DNA of 55,869 bases from Patescibacteria group bacterium (GCA_018817595.1 JAHITU010000004.1:1-55869); one strand, 5' to 3'. Counted from the first letter of the stretch, positions 507 through 26,143 are shown. The notes: a model not told the origin generated them from the letters alone. Program-made: numbers and translations.

Positions 507-609
507 AAAGAGAAAACAAGACAAGGTGAAGGCAATGATTGCATTCACCTTGTTTTTTATTTCAAAAATAATAAAAGTATGTTAATATACAAAGGTTAAA
601 AACATAATA

Positions 610-682
610 CGGGATGTGGTGTAACGGCTAACATTCTCGCTTTGGGAGCGAGCGACTCCGGGTTCGAATCCCGGCATCCCGA
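610..682 (+). tRNA. tRNA-Pro(TGG)
   Basis: Cloverleaf with acceptor CGGGATG/CATCCCG, anticodon stem CTCGC-TTTGGGA-GCGAG and T-loop GGTTCGAATCC. CCA is not encoded. Confidence 0.97.
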
Positions 683-732
683 CAATAATTAAAAAATCAC
701 CCTTTTTGGGTGGTTTTTTAATTATTAGTATG

Positions 733-871
733 AGAATAGTCTGGATTCGAACGGTGATAGAAAAAGGACTAAATGTCCTTTTTCGAGCCGCGTCCAACAG
801 TACTTAATAGATTTCGAGCGATAGCGAAGAAATATATTTAGTAACTGTGGGACGAACCCGGCATCCCGACA
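733..871 (+). repeat. tRNA-Pro-associated folded element (antisense T-arm, hairpins, 43-bp core, duplicated tRNA 3' end)
   Basis: GGATTCGAAC (743-752) is the reverse complement of the T-arm. Core 802-844 is identical to the reverse complement of 2288-2330. 857-871 is identical to 670-684. Confidence 0.85.
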
Positions 872-949
872 CTTAAACAAAAGACTATTCTGATTAATCA
901 GAATAGCCTTTTGTTTTACTAACTAACTAATTCCTAATATCCTAACAAT

Positions 950-1411
950 CTAAATAATCACATCTCCCACATATTTAATGTAATAATCTTTGTCCTTTAT
1001 AGAATTGCATGTACGCCGAAGAGGTGTGTCCTTTAGATTTATAAAGACAATTATGATATCAAATTGCCATAATGTTTCGGGTGAAACATTTTCTTTCATT
1101 AAATATGTTTGAAAAACCCTCTTCAACCTTTGTGTTTTACGAAAATGTATATTATCGTCTAATAAATAACCATCAATTATTTCCTGATCACTCCCCTGTT
1201 TTGTTTCACATGAAACAGTTTTTACCTCAATAAAGTGCAATTTATCTATTTTATTACTAAAAAATCCTTTTTTCTTAATTGCTACAATATCAATTTCTCC
1301 CCATTTTTCTAAATAATTTCTTGTCTGTATTTTTAAACCTTTATTTTTTAAAAATTCACAAGCTAAATTCTCACCATAATTCCCTATTTTTCTTTTTTCA
1401 GATATTGCCAT
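950..1411 (-). CDS. yraN: YraN family (UPF0102) PD-(D/E)XK endonuclease-like protein
   Basis: G-x-x-GE-x-x-A-x-x-FL-x-x-KG...RNY...GEIDIVA...FIEVKT...FDII motifs. Confidence 0.9.
   Translation of the reverse strand: MAISEKRKIGNYGENLACEFLKNKGLKIQTRNYLEKWGEIDIVAIKKKGFFSNKIDKLHFIEVKTVSCETKQGSDQEIIDGYLLDDNIHFRKTQRLKRVFQTYLMKENVSPETLWQFDIIIVFINLKDTPLRRTCNSIKDKDYYIKYVGDVII
1073..1088. promoter_or_regulatory. parS-like site TGTTTCGGGTGAAACA (inside yraN)
   Basis: 14/16 match to the consensus TGTTTCACGTGAAACA. Confidence 0.75.
1202..1217. promoter_or_regulatory. parS-like site TGTTTCACATGAAACA (inside yraN)
   Basis: 15/16 match to the parS consensus. Confidence 0.85.
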
Positions 1412-1474
1412 TAATATAATTATACACTAATTATAAATATATTTAATATTAGAAACCACAAGTAATCAAAAATA

Positions 1475-1490
1475 TGTTTCACCCGAAACA
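1475..1490. promoter_or_regulatory. parS-like site TGTTTCACCCGAAACA
   Basis: 14/16 match; reverse complement of the 1073 and 1944 sites. Confidence 0.75.
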
Positions 1491-1887
1491 TTTGAAAATA
1501 AGATCTCAAAGTTATAAAGTTAATCTAAAGTTAATCTATAGTAAATCTGTTTTTGTTTTTAAACATTTTAATTCAAACAAATTACTCACTTTGACACCTC
1601 ACTTGGACACCCGGTGTCCAAGTTGTTTTAAATTTTATACATATTATATATTAGTAAATTGTTACTTAGTAACATAATGTTTTATAAAAGAAACAGATGA
1701 AAACATAATAATTAAACACTGTAATTGAAATTATTATTAAAAACCTTAAAAACAGATAAATTAAGAGTCAAAAATATGTCTTTTTTAGACGACTTTTATG
1801 AGATAGCTATATTTAAAGCCTTATATAAGGATAATTGGACAAAAAAATCATTAAAATATGGATGTTTTTAAAGGTCAAGTTGTTAAG

Positions 1888-1932
1888 TTATCCACGGTCT
1901 TATCCCCAGTTATCCACGGTTTTGTGTGTATA
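1888..1932. promoter_or_regulatory. Cluster of four DnaA-box-like 9-mers
   Basis: TTATCCACG (1888), TTATCCCCA (1900), TTATCCACG (1910) and TGTGTATAA (1924; reverse is TTATACACA). Confidence 0.55.
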
Positions 1933-1943
1933 AATACATTTAA

Positions 1944-1959
1944 TGTTTCGGGTGAAACA
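1944..1959. promoter_or_regulatory. parS-like site TGTTTCGGGTGAAACA
   Basis: 14/16 match; identical to 1073-1088. Confidence 0.75.
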
Positions 1960-2056
1960 TTAAATTAACTTAATTTATTGATATTTTAACAAATATCTGA
2001 TAATATAAAAATTAGTTAGTATCTATAAACACATTAGAAAGAATAAGGAGCAAAAG

Positions 2057-2143
2057 ATGGGACTCTCACTTTTTGAAATTAATGTTGCAATGTGCGTTTT
2101 TGGAATTGTTTTTTGGGGAGCTATTATATTCCTTCCAAAATAA
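2057..2143 (+). CDS. Unannotated 28-aa hydrophobic small protein MGLSLFEINVAMCVFGIVFWGAIIFLPK
   Basis: AAGGAG upstream of the ATG, a single TM-like stretch, and a downstream terminator AGCAGGGG-N-CCCCTGCT + T-run. Confidence 0.55.
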   Translation: MGLSLFEINVAMCVFGIVFWGAIIFLPK

Positions 2144-2199
2144 CAATTTTAAACAGCAGGGGAATCAAAACCCCTGCTTTTTTATTTCTTTATTAAAAA

Positions 2200-2215
2200 T
2201 GTTTCGTATGAAACA
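2200..2215. promoter_or_regulatory. parS-like site TGTTTCGTATGAAACA
   Basis: 13/16 match with conserved arms. Confidence 0.65.
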
Positions 2216-2261
2216 TAATAAAAGATAAAAACAAGGCAAAAGCTTTGTTTTTATTACTTTA

Positions 2262-2389
2262 TGTCCCTGGCAGGATTCGGTCACAAATTACTAAATATAT
2301 TTCTTCGCTATCGCTCGAAATCTATTAAGTGTTTGCGACCCCGTCTCAGAAAATCTCGGATTTTCTTCCGACTTTCGAATCCTACCAGG
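2262..2389 (-). repeat. tRNA-Arg-associated folded element
   Basis: 2262-2279 is identical to tRNA 2446-2463. 2288-2330 is the same 43-bp core as 802-844. 2374-2389 is an inverted copy of the tRNA 3' region (15/16). Confidence 0.85.
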
Positions 2390-2400
2390 TGGCACTATAA

Positions 2401-2442
2401 TACAATATTAAAACAGCACTGGTGTGCTGTTTTAATATTGTA
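2401..2442. terminator. 19-bp perfect hairpin immediately downstream of tRNA-Arg
   Basis: TACAATATTAAAACAGCAC-TGGT-GTGCTGTTTTAATATTGTA. Confidence 0.6.
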
Positions 2443-2445
2443 TAG

Positions 2446-2517
2446 TGTCCCTGGCAGGATTCGAACCCACAATAACGGTTCCGAAGACCGTTGTGATATC
2501 CATTTCACCACAGGGAC
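2446..2517 (-). tRNA. tRNA-Arg(TCG)
   Basis: Minus strand shows acceptor GTCCCTG/CAGGGAC, anticodon stem ACGGT-CTTCGGA-ACCGT and T-loop GGTTCGAATCC. Confidence 0.96.
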
Positions 2518-2640
2518 AATTACGGTAATTATACATTATTCTTCTTTTTAATAAAGGTTCATCAATCAAAAAAATACAAACTCTTTTCTTTTTTAATAAA
2601 TATGATAAAATGATTATCGTTATAGAAAAATTAGATAAAT

Positions 2641-2701
2641 GCGGGTATAGTTTAGTGATAGTCGCCTCATCGGCGACCTGCCGAAGAGGCAGGAACAACT
2701 G
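2641..2701 (+). pseudogene. Duplicated 5' half of tRNA-Gly with a 32-bp double-hairpin insertion in the D-loop region
   Basis: GCGGGTATAGTTTAGTG(A)TAG-[2662-2693]-AACAACTG matches the first 29 nt of the tRNA at 2749 with one mismatch. Confidence 0.8.
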
Positions 2702-2748
2702 AAGCTTAAAGCATAAAAATAAATTAAAGTTCAATACAATTTAATAAT

Positions 2749-2819
2749 GCGGGTATAGTTTAGTGGTAGAACAACTGCCTTCCAAGCAGTAAACGAGAGT
2801 TCGATTCTCTCTACCCGCA
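2749..2819 (+). tRNA. tRNA-Gly(TCC)
   Basis: Acceptor GCGGGTA/TACCCGC, anticodon stem ACTGC-CTTCCAA-GCAGT and T-loop GTTCGATTC. Confidence 0.96.
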
Positions 2820-2864
2820 CAAAAACATAAAAATAAGGCGAAAGCCTTATTTTTATTTATTTTT

Positions 2865-3038
2865 GTAGCGAAGTAGAGAGAATCGAACCGAGGCGATGCG
2901 AAGCCGACTTTGAAGCGAAGCGGAAGAGTCGAATCGCCGAGTGGAGGTTAATGGAGTAGGGTATTTATGAGTGCGAAGCACGAAATAAATACCCACGAGA
3001 GTAACCGATTCTCTCCGTGTTTAAATTTTGTACCCGCA
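2865..3038 (+). repeat. tRNA-Gly-associated folded element
   Basis: 2873-2888 is the exact reverse complement of tRNA 2799-2814. Hairpin at 2959-2994 has a GA-GTGCGAAGCAC-GAA loop. The sense 3' copy CGATTCTCTC|TACCCGCA is split by 15 bp (3006-3038). Confidence 0.8.
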
Positions 3039-3069
3039 TATTTAAAAAACCAGTCTTTTGAATGGTTTT

Positions 3070-3674
3070 TTAAAATCTATCTATTTCTTCCTTAACTAAA
3101 CCATACAAAGTATTCTTAGTGTCTAATTCATAACTAGGTACAAATTGATCATGCCTAATATTATTAATGTCTAAAATATTAATTTTACCTTTCATTTTAG
3201 TAAAAAATTTAAATGGCCAAAGAATTTTATTAGAAAATCTAGCAAATATATCATCTTTTGAATTTAAAAAAATTATAGGAAATCATTGATTTCTCTAGGT
3301 TTATTAACAGGACAAATAGCAAAAAACCCTTTAGTATTCTTGTAATTACACTTCTCTATAGCAGAAAAGGCTATTTCTGTTCCTATACTTTCTGTAAAAA
3401 ATACATAATTACAATCTAAATCACGCCACAAAACCTCGATTGTTTTATTTATAGCATCAGAAACACCATAAGGAATTATTTTTCCATTCCAATTTATATT
3501 TATTACATCAAATCCATCTTTTTCAAATGCTTTTGACCAAGATTCTTTTTTAAAACCGTATTTAGGAACAAAATTAAAAAGATTTTCATATATAAAATAA
3601 ATCATCTTTTGAATTATTTTATTTTTTGACTTTATTGGGTCAGCTCCATGTATAAAAATTAATTTTGTTTTCAT
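3070..3674 (-). pseudogene. Alpha/beta-hydrolase-fold protein with a single-base frameshift near 3279
   Basis: The N-half (ORF 3273-3674) has FIHG and a TESIG nucleophile-elbow-like motif. The shifted frame continues as FPIIFLNSKDD...NNIRHD...EEIDRF* to 3070. Total length is 605 bp, one base short of a multiple of 3. Confidence 0.7.
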
Positions 3675-3721
3675 AGTAATTATTCTATTATTTTTTATTA
3701 AAAATTGCTATACTAATTTCA

Positions 3722-5194
3722 ATGATTAACCCAAATAAAATACCTCAAGAGGTTTCACATGTAACATCTACTCTCGAAAAAGCTGGTTTTGAGGCTTATT
3801 TAGTTGGTGGTTGTGTTCGAGATTTGCTTATAGAGAGGACACCCAAGGATTGGGATGTTACCACTAATGCTAAGCCTGAAAAGATTCAAGAATTATTTGA
3901 ACATACCTTTTATGAAAATACTTTTGGAACAGTAGGAGTTGTTTCGGAAGAAACAACAGATGAGACTTTAAAAACAATAGAAGTAACACCTTATCGTATA
4001 GAAGGGGCGTATTCTGATAGTCGTCACCCTGACGAAGTTGTTTTTAGTGAAAAATTAGAAGATGACTTAAAAAGAAGAGATTTTACTATCAATGCCATGG
4101 CATATAATGTTTCACATGAAACATTAGTTGATTTATATAACGGACAAGAGGATTTAAATGAAAAAACTATTAAAACAGTAGGGAAACCTGATGATAGGTT
4201 CACCGAAGATGCTTTGAGAATCTTACGAGCTGTACGTTTCGCTACTGAATTAGACTTTTCAATAGAATCAGAAACACAAGAATCTATAATCAAATTTGCA
4301 AAACATCTGGAAAATATCTCCCAAGAAAGGATTCGGGACGAATTTGTTAAGATAATAATGTCAAAAAACCCAATGAATGGTGTTATTTTAAGCCAAAAAC
4401 TAGGACTTTTGAAATATATTATTCCAGAATTAGAAATGGGGATTGGGTCCACACAAAAAGGGGCTCATATTTACAGTATTTGGGAACATAATTTAAGAGC
4501 TTTGCAACATTCAGCAGATAAGGAGATGCCATTACATATACGTTTAGCGGCTTTATTACACGATATTGCAAAACCTCACACCAAAAGATTTGATAAAATA
4601 AAAAAAGAAAACACTTTTTATGGTCATGACGTAGTAGGAGAAAGGGTTTCACGTGAAATACTAGAGAGATTAAAATTCTCTGGTAAAATCATAGAAGTTG
4701 TCCCTAAACTAGTGAGAAACCATTTGTTCTTCTCAGACATAGACCAGATTAGTTTATCAGCTGTAAGGCGAATTATAGCCAGTGTAGGGCCTGAAAATGT
4801 ATGGGATCTAATGGAACTTAGAACTTGCGACAGAATAGGAATGGGAAGACCAAAAGAAAAACCATATAGATTAAGAAAATATATGGCTATGATAGAAGAA
4901 GCTATGAAAGACCCTGTTTCTGTTAAAATGCTTAAAATAAACGGAAATCGTATTATGGAAATAATAAATGAAAAACCAGGTCCTAAAATAGGGTTGGTTT
5001 TGAATGCTTTAATGGAAGAAGTTCTAGATGATCCTAAATTAAACACAGAAGAATACCTAGAATCTAAAACATTAGAATTAATTAAATTGCCCATTTCTGA
5101 ACTAACAAAACTTAGTCAAAAAGGGGAGGAGAAAAAAGAAGCTCAACAAGAAAAGGAATTGGGGGAAATAAGAGCTAGACATAATGTGAAATAG
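3722..5194 (+). CDS. cca: CCA-adding tRNA nucleotidyltransferase / poly(A) polymerase family protein with HD domain
   Basis: LVGGCVRDLL, DWDVTT, RRDFTINA, EDALRILRAVRF and LLHDIAKP motifs. Confidence 0.95.
   Translation: MINPNKIPQEVSHVTSTLEKAGFEAYLVGGCVRDLLIERTPKDWDVTTNAKPEKIQELFEHTFYENTFGTVGVVSEETTDETLKTIEVTPYRIEGAYSDSRHPDEVVFSEKLEDDLKRRDFTINAMAYNVSHETLVDLYNGQEDLNEKTIKTVGKPDDRFTEDALRILRAVRFATELDFSIESETQESIIKFAKHLENISQERIRDEFVKIIMSKNPMNGVILSQKLGLLKYIIPELEMGIGSTQKGAHIYSIWEHNLRALQHSADKEMPLHIRLAALLHDIAKPHTKRFDKIKKENTFYGHDVVGERVSREILERLKFSGKIIEVVPKLVRNHLFFSDIDQISLSAVRRIIASVGPENVWDLMELRTCDRIGMGRPKEKPYRLRKYMAMIEEAMKDPVSVKMLKINGNRIMEIINEKPGPKIGLVLNALMEEVLDDPKLNTEEYLESKTLELIKLPISELTKLSQKGEEKKEAQQEKELGEIRARHNVK
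3751..3766. promoter_or_regulatory. Degenerate parS-like site GGTTTCACATGTAACA (inside cca)
   Basis: 13/16 match. Confidence 0.5.
4108..4123. promoter_or_regulatory. parS-like site TGTTTCACATGAAACA (inside cca)
   Basis: 15/16 match; encodes VSHET. Confidence 0.85.
4645..4660. promoter_or_regulatory. parS-like site GGTTTCACGTGAAATA (inside cca)
   Basis: 14/16 match with a perfect CACGTG centre. Confidence 0.65.
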
Positions 5195-5263
5195 TCGAAA
5201 GCCTGTAAAGTCCATAATGTCAAAAGTCAAAAAAATTCGCTTTGCGAATTTTTTTCTTTTTAA

Positions 5264-5388
5264 ATTCTGGATTGCTTTGTCATTTCGCTATGCTCTACTC
5301 CTCGCAAAGACGAATTTTGAAAAGTAAAATTCGTTACGAATCACTTTAGTGATTCGTCTTTGCGAGCGATAGCGAAGCAATCCAGAAA
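5264..5388. repeat. RPE/REP-like palindromic element (GGATTGCTT...CTCGCAAAGACG...CGTCTTGCGAGCGATAGCGAAGCAATCC)
   Basis: Nested inverted repeats. Related copies at about 11710-11850, 24630-24733 and 25770-25880. Confidence 0.8.
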
Positions 5389-5910
5389 TAAAAAACCATT
5401 AAAAAAGTCCCCAAAATGAGGCTTTCATTAAGGGGACTTTATGAATATCCCTATTTTTTGAAAGAAACAGAGGTTTCTTTCCTACTACTTTTTATGTATA
5501 TTTTACATATTTTTTAGATAAATTTATAAAGAACAAAAACAAACTACGGACTAACTATGAGTACGAACGATAAACTTTTTATTCAAATTAACAAAGGCTG
5601 GTAACTTCCCAGCAGAAATTTAAAATTATTTTTTTTCTCAATGAACTACCTGTCCTATATAATATTTTATATAAAAGACATTGTAAAGGACATAACTGTG
5701 GATAACTTTTTTATGTCCTTTATCCGGACAAACTCAATTTTTAATTTTATAATTTTTAATTTTTAATTAATTTCTAATGTCTTAATTTCTAAACATGACG
5801 AAAATTTGCTTTGCAAATTTTCGTAAAGTTTTAAACATTAAAAATTTTGATTTCTTTAAAAATTACAAAATTAAAAATTAAAAATTCCTTGTTTTTGATT
5901 AAAAACAAGG

Positions 5911-6807
5911 TTACCTCTTTCCATGAAACTTTTTATGTATATCTTTTAAATGTTTATCTGTCATATGGGTATAAATCTGAGTGGTAGAAATATCAGCATG
6001 ACCTAACATCATTTGCACTGATCTTAAATCAGCCCCATTCTCTAACAAATCAGTAGCAAAGGAGTGACGAATAATGTGAGGGGTTACTTTCTTAGTGATC
6101 CCTGCTTTGATAGCTGATTGTTTTACTAATCTTTCTACTGAACGAGTCGTTAAACGACTAGCAGGCCCTTTAGTATTTAAAGAAACAAACAGGGCATCGC
6201 TCATATCTTTTCTTTTTGCTAAATATTCTTTAACCGCTTTTTTAGCAGAATCAGAAAAGAAAACCACTCTGACCTTATCTCCTTTTCCTCTCACAGACAT
6301 TTCATCTTTCTTTAAATCAATATCAGAATTTAAAGCACATAATTCTGAAACCCGTAATCCAGTAGAAAAAAGTAATTCTAAAATGGCTTTGTTTCTTAAA
6401 CTGGCTAAATCTTTTTCTTTATAAACTCCTAATAATCTTCTTAATTCATCTTCATTAATTAAATCAAGGGAACGGTCACCAACCTTAGCCAACTCAATTT
6501 TTTCCGGAGCCAATGATTGAATTTCTCTTTTCACTAAATATTTCAAAAAACCTCTTAACGCGATAAGGTAATAATTTTGAGTTTTCTTTTTTATAGTATC
6601 TGAATTGTTTCCAGTTAATTGACGATTTAAATACAGACGATATTTTCTTAATTTCTCATCGGTAATAGCAGAGGGGGAGTCTGATTCTAAATAATCTAAA
6701 AATTTATTTAAATATCTATCATAATTCTCAACGGTTTTGAGGCTGCGTCCTTTTTCTATTTCTAGATATTCTAAAAATTCATTTTTTAATTTTTTTAAAT
6801 TAGACAT
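5911..6807 (-). CDS. xerC: XerC/XerD-type site-specific tyrosine recombinase (probable start ATG at 6807)
   Basis: N-terminal SAM-like domain (FLEYLEIEKGRSLKTVENY), then TGLRVSEL, RGKGDKVR, TPHIIRHSFATDLL and LGHADISTTQIYT catalytic motifs. No IntI-specific insertion is visible. Confidence 0.9.
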   Translation of the reverse strand: MSNLKKLKNEFLEYLEIEKGRSLKTVENYDRYLNKFLDYLESDSPSAITDEKLRKYRLYLNRQLTGNNSDTIKKKTQNYYLIALRGFLKYLVKREIQSLAPEKIELAKVGDRSLDLINEDELRRLLGVYKEKDLASLRNKAILELLFSTGLRVSELCALNSDIDLKKDEMSVRGKGDKVRVVFFSDSAKKAVKEYLAKRKDMSDALFVSLNTKGPASRLTTRSVERLVKQSAIKAGITKKVTPHIIRHSFATDLLENGADLRSVQMMLGHADISTTQIYTHMTDKHLKDIHKKFHGKR

Positions 6808-6884
6808 TTTAATTTTGTATTTTAATTTGAAATCATTATAACATAATAGAATAAAATATTGTGCGACATGAAATGCTACAATGC

Positions 6885-6914
6885 TTGACAATCTATATAT
6901 TATTGTTCTATAAT
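6885..6914 (+). promoter_or_regulatory. Sigma70-type promoter divergent from the recombinase
   Basis: TTGACA-N18-TATAAT. Confidence 0.7.
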
Positions 6915-25658: not shown

Positions 25659-26143
25659 ATAAAATCCAACACCTCAAGTCGTTGAGGTGTTGGATTGTTT
25701 TATGGCTCTAATGAGTCATAATTTAAAAATATTTGGAAATAACATTTCCAAATATTTTTTGTTTTTTTTAGACTGCCGCGTCAGAAATTTTAAAAAAAAA
25801 TAGCCCAACTAGTTGGGCTATTTCTTTTTTAAAATTTCTCTCCTCGCAGAGACGGATTTTGCGATGCAAAATTCATATACATAATACCCTAACCTGCCTG
25901 CCCACGCCTGCAGGCGCGCAGGGATAGGCAGGGATGACGATGTTTGAGGTTTTGGTTTTTTATAGCACAACAAGGACTTATTAAACAATCCTCTTTTAAC
26001 CTATTTTATAAAGTTTTTAATTTTTATGACTTTCGATTTTATGGACTTTATAGACCTGCCTGCCGGCAGGCAGGCTTTCGACTCGTTAAAGTTATTCACA
26101 ATTTATTAAAAAATATATATAAAAAATGATATAATTTATCGGA

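Follow-up and report, generated by a model that had tools for sequence, protein, structure and literature searches.

What kind of DNA sits behind a tRNA gene and carries at its borders antisense and sense copies of that gene's own 3′ end? The question is posed by a 55,869-nucleotide (nt) stretch from a Patescibacteria group bacterium (GCA_018817595.1 JAHITU010000004.1:1-55869), here called the window, whose source organism is a groundwater bacterium of the Paceibacteria type. Within ~610-3060, ARAGORN and Rfam place three tRNA genes (Pro, Arg and Gly), each followed by a compact folded unit that we refer to as a cassette. The cassettes are insertions, present at a tRNA gene in one genome and absent from the orthologous gene in another, with arms tailored to the tRNA and a fold conserved on one strand. 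We favour, if only tentatively, the explanation that they are non-autonomous, modular insertion elements that dock at the 3′ ends of tRNA and tRNA-like genes in Patescibacteria, are mobilised in trans and act as folded single-stranded DNA (ssDNA).

Read in the direction of the tRNA, the same succession of parts was found for all three genes: a terminator hairpin (term1), an antisense arm (X′), two hairpins (H1 and H2), a sense copy of tRNA nt 56-76 (X2) and a second terminator (term2), with X1 designating nt 56-76 of the tRNA gene itself. Repeats, folds and a terminator scan confirmed both this order and the coordinates that a sequence-only reading had proposed. On the tRNA-sense strand, each of the three elements folds into a three-way junction made of a closing X′:X2 helix together with H1 and H2 (fold z-scores of −6.7, −7.5 and −4.8 for Pro, Arg and Gly); the terminators come from the terminator scan. 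The neighbourhoods of eight related Paceibacteria genomes (L121-L137), retrieved via YraN homologues, served for comparison. The genes and cassette parts of the window are as follows.

610..683, + strand: tRNA-Pro(TGG), called by ARAGORN and Rfam; its nt 56-76 (670-684) are X1.
684..726, + strand: Pro term1, the cassette-side terminator hairpin, with arms at 684-702 and 708-726 (repeat and terminator scan).
739..752, + strand: Pro X′ arm; the match to the tRNA is limited to 743-752 (GGATTCGAAC, a generic T-loop complement).
752..790, + strand: Pro H1, from the fold.
791..854, + strand: Pro H2, of which 802-844 is identical to Arg H2; tip C-GA-[GCGATAGC]-GAA-G.
855..871, + strand: Pro X2, the sense copy of nt 56-76, lacking 1 nt of the T-loop, as in L125.
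875..916, + strand: Pro term2, a native bidirectional terminator whose orthologue immediately follows tRNA-Pro in L136 and L128, where the locus is empty.
2224..2255, − strand: Arg term2, a native terminator whose orthologue lies directly behind tRNA-Arg in the empty L136 locus.
2262..2279, − strand: Arg X2, sense copy (18/18).
2279..2340, − strand: Arg H2, from the fold; 2288-2330 is the Pro core.
2343..2372, − strand: Arg H1, from the fold.
2374..2395, − strand: Arg X′ antisense arm (15/16); the palindrome continues through the trailer.
2400..2443, − strand: Arg term1, a perfect 20-bp hairpin that forms, with X1 and X′, a palindrome with arms of ~46 nt.
2445..2517, − strand: tRNA-Arg(TCG), called by ARAGORN and Rfam.
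2749..2820, + strand: tRNA-Gly(TCC), called by ARAGORN and Rfam.
2821..2866, + strand: Gly term1, hairpin at 2827-2856; the scaffold is homologous to that of L125 and L134.
2873..2888, + strand: Gly X′ antisense arm (16/16).
2888..2944, + strand: Gly H1, in which GCGAAGC is present twice.
2946..3005, + strand: Gly H2, from the fold; tip GA-[GTGCGAAGCAC]-GAA.
3006..3038, + strand: Gly X2, composed of 3006-3015 and 3031-3038 with a 15-nt insert in between (3016-3030).

Sense copies of the tRNA tail were found in all three cassettes: Pro 857-871 equals 670-684, the Arg copy is perfect, and the Gly copy matches at 10/10 positions over 3006-3015 before resuming with TACCCGCA at 3031-3038 behind its insert. 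The antisense copy that had been claimed alongside it held for Arg and Gly, whereas the Pro match is no more than the generic T-loop complement; past 743-752, Pro X′ stays at chance level (5.5 over the last 16 nt versus a non-cognate 95th percentile of 8). Across the window and its relatives, 16 of 30 loci scored at least 11.5/16 for the sense copy, compared with a non-cognate 95th percentile of 9. The identical 43-bp core noticed in the Pro and Arg cassettes is exact, 802-844 being the reverse complement of 2288-2330. Cassette inserts measure 150-200 nt, and neither an open reading frame (ORF) nor an integrase gene lies inside them. Mechanical ORF calls of 47-100 aa run across cassettes and tRNAs at 725-880 (−), 2261-2551 (+), 2432-2734 (−) and 2853-2996 (−); these are almost certainly spurious and at risk of being misannotated as genes.

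Taken by itself, the Pro antisense match would be compatible with chance similarity. Chance is excluded by shuffled and non-cognate controls, and artefact by the recurrence of the same arrangement on independent contigs from other samples, by the Arg cassette in a relative's independent contig (L121; 95.5% identity to the window) and by the source sequencing run, which covers the cassette region with 0 mismatches, its sole break lying at the repeated core. Chance similarity or misassembly, conceded by the sequence-only reading as a possible undoing of its claims, can thus be practically dismissed.

Among the eight relatives, cassettes at orthologous tRNA genes are variably present, absent, single or tandem. 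Behind tRNA-Pro, the window and L125/127 are filled and L122, L128 and L136 empty; tRNA-Arg is followed by a single cassette in the window, L121, L122 and L128 and by a tandem pair in L125-127, with L134 and L136 empty; and tRNA-Gly(TCC) has a cassette in the window and L125 but not in L121, the closest relative. Empty alleles of the orthologous Pro, Arg and Gly(TCC) genes therefore exist. At tRNA-Gly(GCC), two cassettes follow each other as B-then-C in L132 and as C-then-B in L134. The Pro and Arg terminators that stand downstream of X2 in the window have their orthologues immediately after the respective tRNA in empty L136. The inserted DNA therefore comprises a copy of tRNA nt 56-76 together with term1, X′, H1 and H2, and X2 plus term2 represent the displaced original tRNA tail, up to the ambiguity inherent in a duplication. 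The duplicated nt 56-76 stretch, which may derive from the target or have arrived with the element, spans 17-32 nt, and the duplication reaches 11-16 nt into the trailer in L173 and L174.

The association with tRNAs extends well beyond this locus. When 16 cores were searched by blastn over 1.04 Mb (the window, its relatives and 120 loci of other phyla), full cores were found solely behind tRNA or tRNA-like 3′ ends; what does occur away from tRNAs, a scenario the sequence-only reading had considered for the core as a whole, is its 21-nt tip, a pan-bacterial repeat motif discussed below. Scanning metagenomes with an exact 23-nt stretch of one core type ("C-type" H2) returned 66 loci, 38 of which have a same-strand tRNA ending upstream, with at least 17 anticodon types represented; 13 of the 66 lie too close to the contig start for judgement, and the remainder stand mostly behind tRNA-like 3′ ends missed by ARAGORN. 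The sense copy reached a median of 12.5/15 in 25 metagenome elements (non-cognate 95th percentile, 6.5), and even unusual T-loops are copied in X′: TTCAAGT (Val, Leu), TTCGAGC (Phe), ATCGTTC (Met) and TTTCGATTA (Gly). Larger spacings between tRNA and core correspond to tandem cassette arrays. Downstream sense and/or antisense copies accompany 63 of 93 unique Patescibacteria tRNA loci, in a sample biased to cassette-bearing contigs. Rfam yielded no cassette match at the gathering threshold, which only the three tRNAs passed, and a permissive Rfam scan of 550-5500 gave hairpin-type miRNA noise only. Sequence-string and keyword searches retrieved no description of the family among the papers covered.

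The fold is conserved on one strand only. Folding favoured the sense strand over its complement in all 16 elements compared (16 of 16), by a mean of 9.3 kcal/mol. An alignment of 37 C-type cores has 93.8% of its cells paired, compared with 78.1% after shuffling and 32-40% in slid controls, and contains 154 double-sided changes versus 44.6, a value matched by 0 of 500 shuffles. G·U pairs are far commoner than A·C pairs in this alignment. Given this covariation with frequent wobble and rare A·C pairs, the folding molecule is a single strand, the sense one. H2 is characterised by an asymmetric internal loop near its base, a conserved T·T mismatch within CTTAG/CTTAG and a GA-[4-bp stem + GNA/GNNA loop]-GAA tip whose stem varies in a compensatory manner, the same tip often recurring on H1. 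In well-preserved copies, X′ contributes to two stems: its 5′ portion forms the A stem with the acceptor 3′ strand, nt 65, the discriminator and 1-2 nt of the trailer, and its 3′ portion the T stem with the T-stem 3′ strand and T-loop. Both stems are uninterrupted on the X2 strand; the X′ strand is split opposite nt 64|65 by a further hairpin, B. Hairpin B and the acceptor/T-stem mimic are present in the folds of L142, L148, L149, L179 and L198. Folded in this way, a fresh cassette rebuilds the acceptor/T-stem stack of its tRNA, B replacing nt 8-48 and H1 plus H2 replacing the T-loop.

Cassettes also turn over in parts. On the Gly(TCC) gene, the term1 plus X′ scaffold is homologous in the window, L125 and L134 (79-83% identity), and the core it carries belongs to one type in the window and to the B-type in L125; in L134 the core is deleted. 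Conversely, near-identical core parts are found behind different tRNAs of one genome, i.e. Pro and Arg in the window, and Arg-B and Gly(TCC) in L125. L121 and the window have the same tRNA sequence, with 94% identity in term1, 95.5% in the cassette and ~63% in the flanks; such high identity of the cassette relative to its flanks fits recent spread or turnover. X2 decays, as seen in the Pro deletion shared with L125, the Gly insert and the degenerate copies of L199 and L168. Where the sense copies disagree, X′ follows the version of the live tRNA and X2 is fossil-like: in L152, X2 has the T-stem/acceptor allele of L142, and X1 and X′ have the resident allele, with L195 and L199 behaving similarly. 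In the same vein, the Arg-B arm reads CCTGG in the window (tRNA, CCAGG) and CCCGG in L126 (tRNA, CCGGG). Several of these evolutionary readings are drawn from a handful of loci. The notion of a mobile element whose ends adapt to tRNAs was partly borne out, in that the insertions are polymorphic, the arms cognate and the core found behind at least 17 tRNA species; the antisense arm may be a target guide, as once suggested for the ends, but the tracking of the live tRNA by X′ over X2 is compatible with hairpin-templated correction after insertion as well as with guiding.

Part of the cassette has relatives outside the tRNA context. The Pro/Arg H2 tip (TTTCGAGCGATAGCGAAGAAA) recurs at 5360-5380 with compensatory flanks, within a strongly folding element at 5265..5385 that lies behind the CCA-adding enzyme gene, adjoins no tRNA and has only this 21-nt motif in common with Pro/Arg H2. 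This element is an ordinary doublet of repetitive extragenic palindromes (REPs), CGTC/TGTC-tagged and with permuted arm order. A scan of a genome collection with TTNCGAGCGATAGCGAAGNAA, for which ~4 chance matches were expected (an estimate from pattern length and collection size), found at least 120 loci in many phyla. Among the matches listed, nearly all share the context gtcaTTGCGAGCGATAGCGAAGCAAtcc...ggattgcttcg...ctcgcaatgac, only 1 of 127 has a tRNA nearby, and a near-constant 30-nt arm occurs in Bacteroidota, Alphaproteobacteria, Cyanobacteria, Chloroflexota, the candidate phyla radiation (CPR) and others. Other variants of the arm (GAGGAGC...GCGACGAA) also serve as cassette tips. We take this repeat to be the CGTC/TGTC-tagged REP kind, for which no dedicated transposase is known (Di Nocera et al. 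2013, PMC3733652). Pro/Arg H2 shares with the REP arms of many phyla an identical 15-mer, CGAGCGATAGCGAAG, and the general pattern GA-[short GC hairpin]-GAA; the tips of cassettes and the arms of REPs are thus drawn from one motif pool. REPs, however, are 20-40-bp palindromes dispersed between genes without target-matched arms, and since the hairpin tips are all that is held in common, the cassettes are not members of the REP family. The link suggests that hairpin-recognising machinery is perhaps common to both. As a separate observation, a perfect 20-bp GC-rich palindrome (CCTGCCTGCCGGCAGGCAGG) at 26054-26073, in AT-rich DNA, was also seen in L045, and it sits within H2 of the second Gly-GCC cassette of L132. 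The tRNA cassettes bear no sequence relationship to the 52-bp palindromes of a neighbouring cassette array (8550 and others).

How might an element of this make-up move? Its active form would be a folded single strand, most likely of DNA, shaped as a rod or dumbbell [X-term1-X′-H1-H2] whose X:X′ duplex mimics the target. Five properties point to an ssDNA intermediate: an antisense arm is needed, the fold is specific to one strand, hairpins of REP type occur together with C-GNA-G loops, X′ pairs into the trailer, and the element stands behind a terminator and lacks a promoter. Specifically, C-GNA-G loops, GCGAAGC loops and REP-identical tips are all found in cassettes; the X duplication running on into the trailer in L173 and L174 also favours the DNA level; X′ complements the gene trailer and not CCA, except where CCA is encoded (L195); and no promoter-like site was found between term1 and X′. 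These last two properties likewise leave a decoy attB or a cis-antisense regulator of the tRNA, both once envisaged for the locus, without support. The enzyme acting in trans may be a tyrosine recombinase performing single-strand exchange, as on CTXphi attP or integron attC (a Xer-type gene 3 kb away is in keeping with this), or an HUH/Y1 nuclease, as in IS200/IS605 and REP elements. A circle or rod [X-term1-X′-H1-H2] could recombine with the tRNA gene within X to yield X1-term1-X′-H1-H2-X2, or else [term1-X′-H1-H2-X] could be placed directly 3′ of the tRNA, which would produce the same order. After insertion, hairpin-templated correction acting inside the palindrome of X1, term1 and X′ would keep X′ in agreement with the live tRNA, X2 would decay, and H1/H2 cores would be swapped among the cassettes of one genome. 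Taken further, the cassettes might constitute a new class of protein-less, base-pair-programmed mobile cassette, a proposition we regard as possible but doubtful: only hairpin B and the H1-H2 junction would be constant, the arms would be re-templated from the tRNA tail—the antisense arm being rewritten by hairpin-templated copying of the live tRNA—and an ssDNA rod mimicking the acceptor/T-stem stack would use the most conserved sequences as landing pads across species.

Several known systems offer partial precedents. CTXphi attP(+) is used by XerCD through a single-strand exchange that is resolved by replication (PMC3442271; see also PMC4246890). As in CTXphi attP(+) and integron attC, inverted target-like copies ~100 nt apart pair within one strand of the cassette into a target-mimicking duplex, folding is strand-specific, and the element has no recombinase gene of its own; the X′:X2 helix corresponds to the 3′ duplex of the tRNA gene, in keeping with the target-like folded arms of attC and of attP from integrative mobile elements exploiting Xer (IMEX). 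Single-strand exchange followed by replication would, moreover, yield the order X1-term1-X′-H1-H2-X2. Unlike these systems, the cassettes target a tRNA gene tail instead of dif or attI, have arms that vary with the target where those of CTXphi and attC are fixed, measure only ~190 nt and carry no cargo; no R-box or dif consensus was evident in them by eye.

The ends of IS200/IS605 elements have a layout similar to that of the cassette. Together with their derivatives, the palindrome-associated transposable elements (PATEs) and REPs, they share with the cassettes single-stranded hairpins near both ends, no fixed-sequence terminal inverted repeats (TIRs), a segment 5′ of a hairpin that pairs with sequence outside the left end and with the right end of the element, REP-type tips (on H1/H2) and insertion 3′ of a defined sequence; the features by which PATEs are recognised, i.e. 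subterminal hairpins, strand-specific folding and no TIR, recur in the cassettes. However, known guides are 4 nt long compared with the 16-22 nt of the cassette arm, and IS608 and PATEs produce no target duplication, whereas nt 56-76 are duplicated in cassettes. No TnpA or RAYT gene was found, in searches that were not genome-wide. Islands and prophages entering the T-loop of tRNA or tmRNA genes resemble the cassettes in that the tRNA 3′ end is directly repeated from the T-loop onwards and the tRNA tail restored while the original is pushed downstream; they differ in that a cassette lacks integrase and cargo, spans just 150-200 bp, includes an antisense copy and shows one core at many tRNAs. 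Miniature inverted-repeat transposable elements (MITEs) have TIRs constant throughout a family, and here X′ and X2 change with the tRNA and the core is constant. The inverted terminal repeat of adeno-associated virus (a parvovirus) forms a T/Y-shaped ssDNA three-way junction with a closing stem and two small arms, its GAGC-type repeats being bound by the HUH protein Rep; coming from a eukaryotic virus and being of fixed sequence not matched to a target, it is alike in shape only. To our knowledge, no known system has a junction flanked by antisense and sense copies of the last ~20 nt of its target in the manner of a tRNA top-half mimic. As it departs in defining features from islands, MITEs, REPs, PATEs, attC/attP and introns or ribozymes alike, we regard the cassette as new in kind, its mechanism being putative.

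Several findings weigh against mobile elements acting as ssDNA. The term1 hairpins are unrelated in sequence among cassettes with near-identical cores and scaffolds outlive cores, so that the moving unit is not cleanly defined. Neither a recombinase nor a transposase could be linked to the cassettes, the nearby Xer-type gene being a conserved chromosomal gene and as such no proof. No circle junction, excision scar or sign of ssDNA was found, the source run containing no such joint, and a lone joint that "goes back" (run X4) belongs to a 2-kb tandem array of another organism. Searches of viral contigs identified no carrier: the C-type core had 0 matches there, and a looser pattern gave 117 loci, all noise. 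The proposed mechanism does not account for the re-tailoring of an arm to a new tRNA, and the correction step derives from few cases. Finally, the occupancy of 63/93 and the slow evolution relative to the flanks are equally compatible with a host function. This would be provided if the cassettes were host-beneficial structured RNAs, made by read-through of term1 and mimicking the top half of the cognate tRNA, the main alternative, which we deem possible but less likely. Such RNAs could serve in processing or quality control, as a decoy or as a substrate of the CCA enzyme or RNase P, co-evolving with the tRNA and being lost by X1/X2 recombination. The acceptor/T-stem mimic with its branch at the position of nt 8-48, the strong covariation with wobble pairs on the sense strand, GNRA-type GAAA loops on some tips, a cassette evolution 4-5 times slower than that of the flanks, the match of X′ to the live tRNA and the presence of cassettes at most sampled tRNA genes would all fit. 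Yet a good intrinsic terminator stands ahead with no room for a promoter, pairing of X′ through the discriminator and trailer leaves no free acceptor end, and the fold is not kept in old copies because X2 decays (Pro, Gly, L199, L168). Moreover, close relatives have the same genes without a cassette, tandem order varies, cores are swapped on one scaffold, and no RNA run showing a cassette was found, those searched matching the tRNA part alone or nothing.

Two further explanations regard the cassettes as by-products or relics. Template switching during replication, provoked by the T-loop palindrome (TTCGAA) and the terminator hairpin, could triplicate the tRNA tail, with REP-like hairpins invading the junctions. 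This would explain why X1, X′ and X2 form a direct-inverted-direct triplication that includes 11 nt of trailer in L174, why tRNA-Gly of L134 is followed by a core-less term1-X′-X2, why the tips are REP motifs and a 20-bp GC palindrome lies inside H2 in L132, and why scaffolds outlast cores. We nonetheless consider it improbable: term1 copies neither the native terminator nor the trailer, the junctions and the whole H1-H2 unit are conserved together over no fewer than 17 tRNA types, the register of hairpin B (64|65) is constant in many of them, and the core-less L134 copy retains junction leftovers ("aac t") that give it the look of a deletion derivative. As for miniature or integrase-less remnants of tyrosine- or serine-integrase islands, X1 and X2 would be attL and attR and the interior what remains of the attP arms, in agreement with the direct repeats of the tRNA 3′ end that flank the insert from the T-loop onwards and with the supply of a replacement 3′ end and terminator, as by islands. 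However, none of the 66 + 17 loci holds a longer, integrase-bearing version, integrases are not known to need or create an antisense copy of their target, one core is found at no fewer than 17 different tRNAs, unlike att sites, and a double-stranded circle of 190 bp is a poor integrase substrate. This origin, too, appears improbable.

Other candidates were rejected on structural grounds. The GA...GAA tips do not form a hammerhead, inspection showing a continuous helix in the flanks and no CUGA; a group I or II intron has neither an Rfam match nor room in a core of ~100 nt; and a tRNA or tmRNA gene is not called by ARAGORN in the elements, which are without T-loop, D arm and anticodon arm. X′ is no primer-binding site for a mature tRNA 3′ end, as it complements the gene trailer and not CCA (L195 excepted), nor is it the 5′ half of a tandem pseudo-tRNA, being the reverse complement of T-loop, discriminator and trailer. 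The idea that term1 is a palindromised native trailer, generated by hairpin opening or P nucleotides, fails because the trailers of X1 and X2 are unrelated and term2 corresponds to the terminator of empty loci.

If mobile, the cassettes would represent a compact and apparently undescribed form of DNA gene targeting, in which a folded core of ~100 nt is combined with arms matching the last 20 bases of any tRNA, and which occupies, in the sampled loci, most tRNA genes of a major bacterial radiation. They would then bear on site-specific insertion that is programmed by base-pairing without an element-encoded protein, on why tRNA tails serve as universal landing sites, and on how the tiny genomes of CPR bacteria tolerate, or perhaps use, DNA that supplies the terminator of a tRNA. 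If functional RNAs, they would form a new family of tRNA mimics tied to tRNA 3′-end biology. On either account, annotation is affected by spurious ORFs, by assembly breaks at repeated cores and by inverted repeats able to flip gene blocks.

Three protein-coding genes neighbour the cassettes.

950-1411, − strand: YraN gene.
3722-5194, + strand: CCA-adding enzyme gene.
5911-6891, − strand: Xer-type tyrosine recombinase gene, 3 kb from the cassettes and syntenic in relatives.

Several rearrangements were observed in this neighbourhood. In the window, yraN is flanked by an inverted repeat of 84 nt, 43 of them identical, that consists of the Pro and Arg cassettes. The unit of tRNA-Pro and cassette (window 610-916 versus L125 5194-5560) runs in the opposite orientation to that of L125/L127 and L122, and the divergent Arg/Gly tRNA pair has undergone a block inversion in L122/L124; the Pro/Arg inverted repeat could be a driver of such orientation flips. 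tRNA-Gly additionally carries a 5′-side cassette at 2638-2748, consisting of an orphan copy of the first 21 nt of the gene with 3 upstream nt (2638-2661, placed in the original promoter context), followed by two GC hairpins and then, ahead of the intact gene, by a new upstream region. The whole ~108-nt insert is absent from the closest relative L121 (read joint 2622->2746). The palindrome TGTTTC-NNN-TGAAACA occurs at seven sites (1073, 1202, 1475, 1944, 2200, 3940 and 4108) versus 0.18 expected, all within the first 4.2 kb of the window and some inside the YraN and CCA-enzyme genes, with equivalent positions in relatives; it could be an operator-like site or a further small palindromic invader.

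Other small inserts, none with an antisense arm, were found at the same tRNA genes. In one type, a ~93-nt unit is repeated in tandem, each unit joining a short GC hairpin to a tRNA copy from the variable region to the 3′ end; in another, tRNA-Gly is duplicated from the D-loop to 8 nt beyond the gene around a 45-nt spacer. Small inserts lie behind tRNA-Pro at L132 2150-2342, L134 7030-7150 and L128 6530-6598, and behind tRNA-Gly at L122 9356-9470 and in L128. In several relatives, stand-alone genes for small GIY-YIG nucleases (80-99 aa) adjoin tRNA genes (L128 6673-6918, L132 2421-2660, L134 6541-6795 and L122 6742-7041); none was seen beside the tRNAs of the window, and in L128 and L132 the nuclease gene ends just 2-5 nt ahead of tRNA-Pro.

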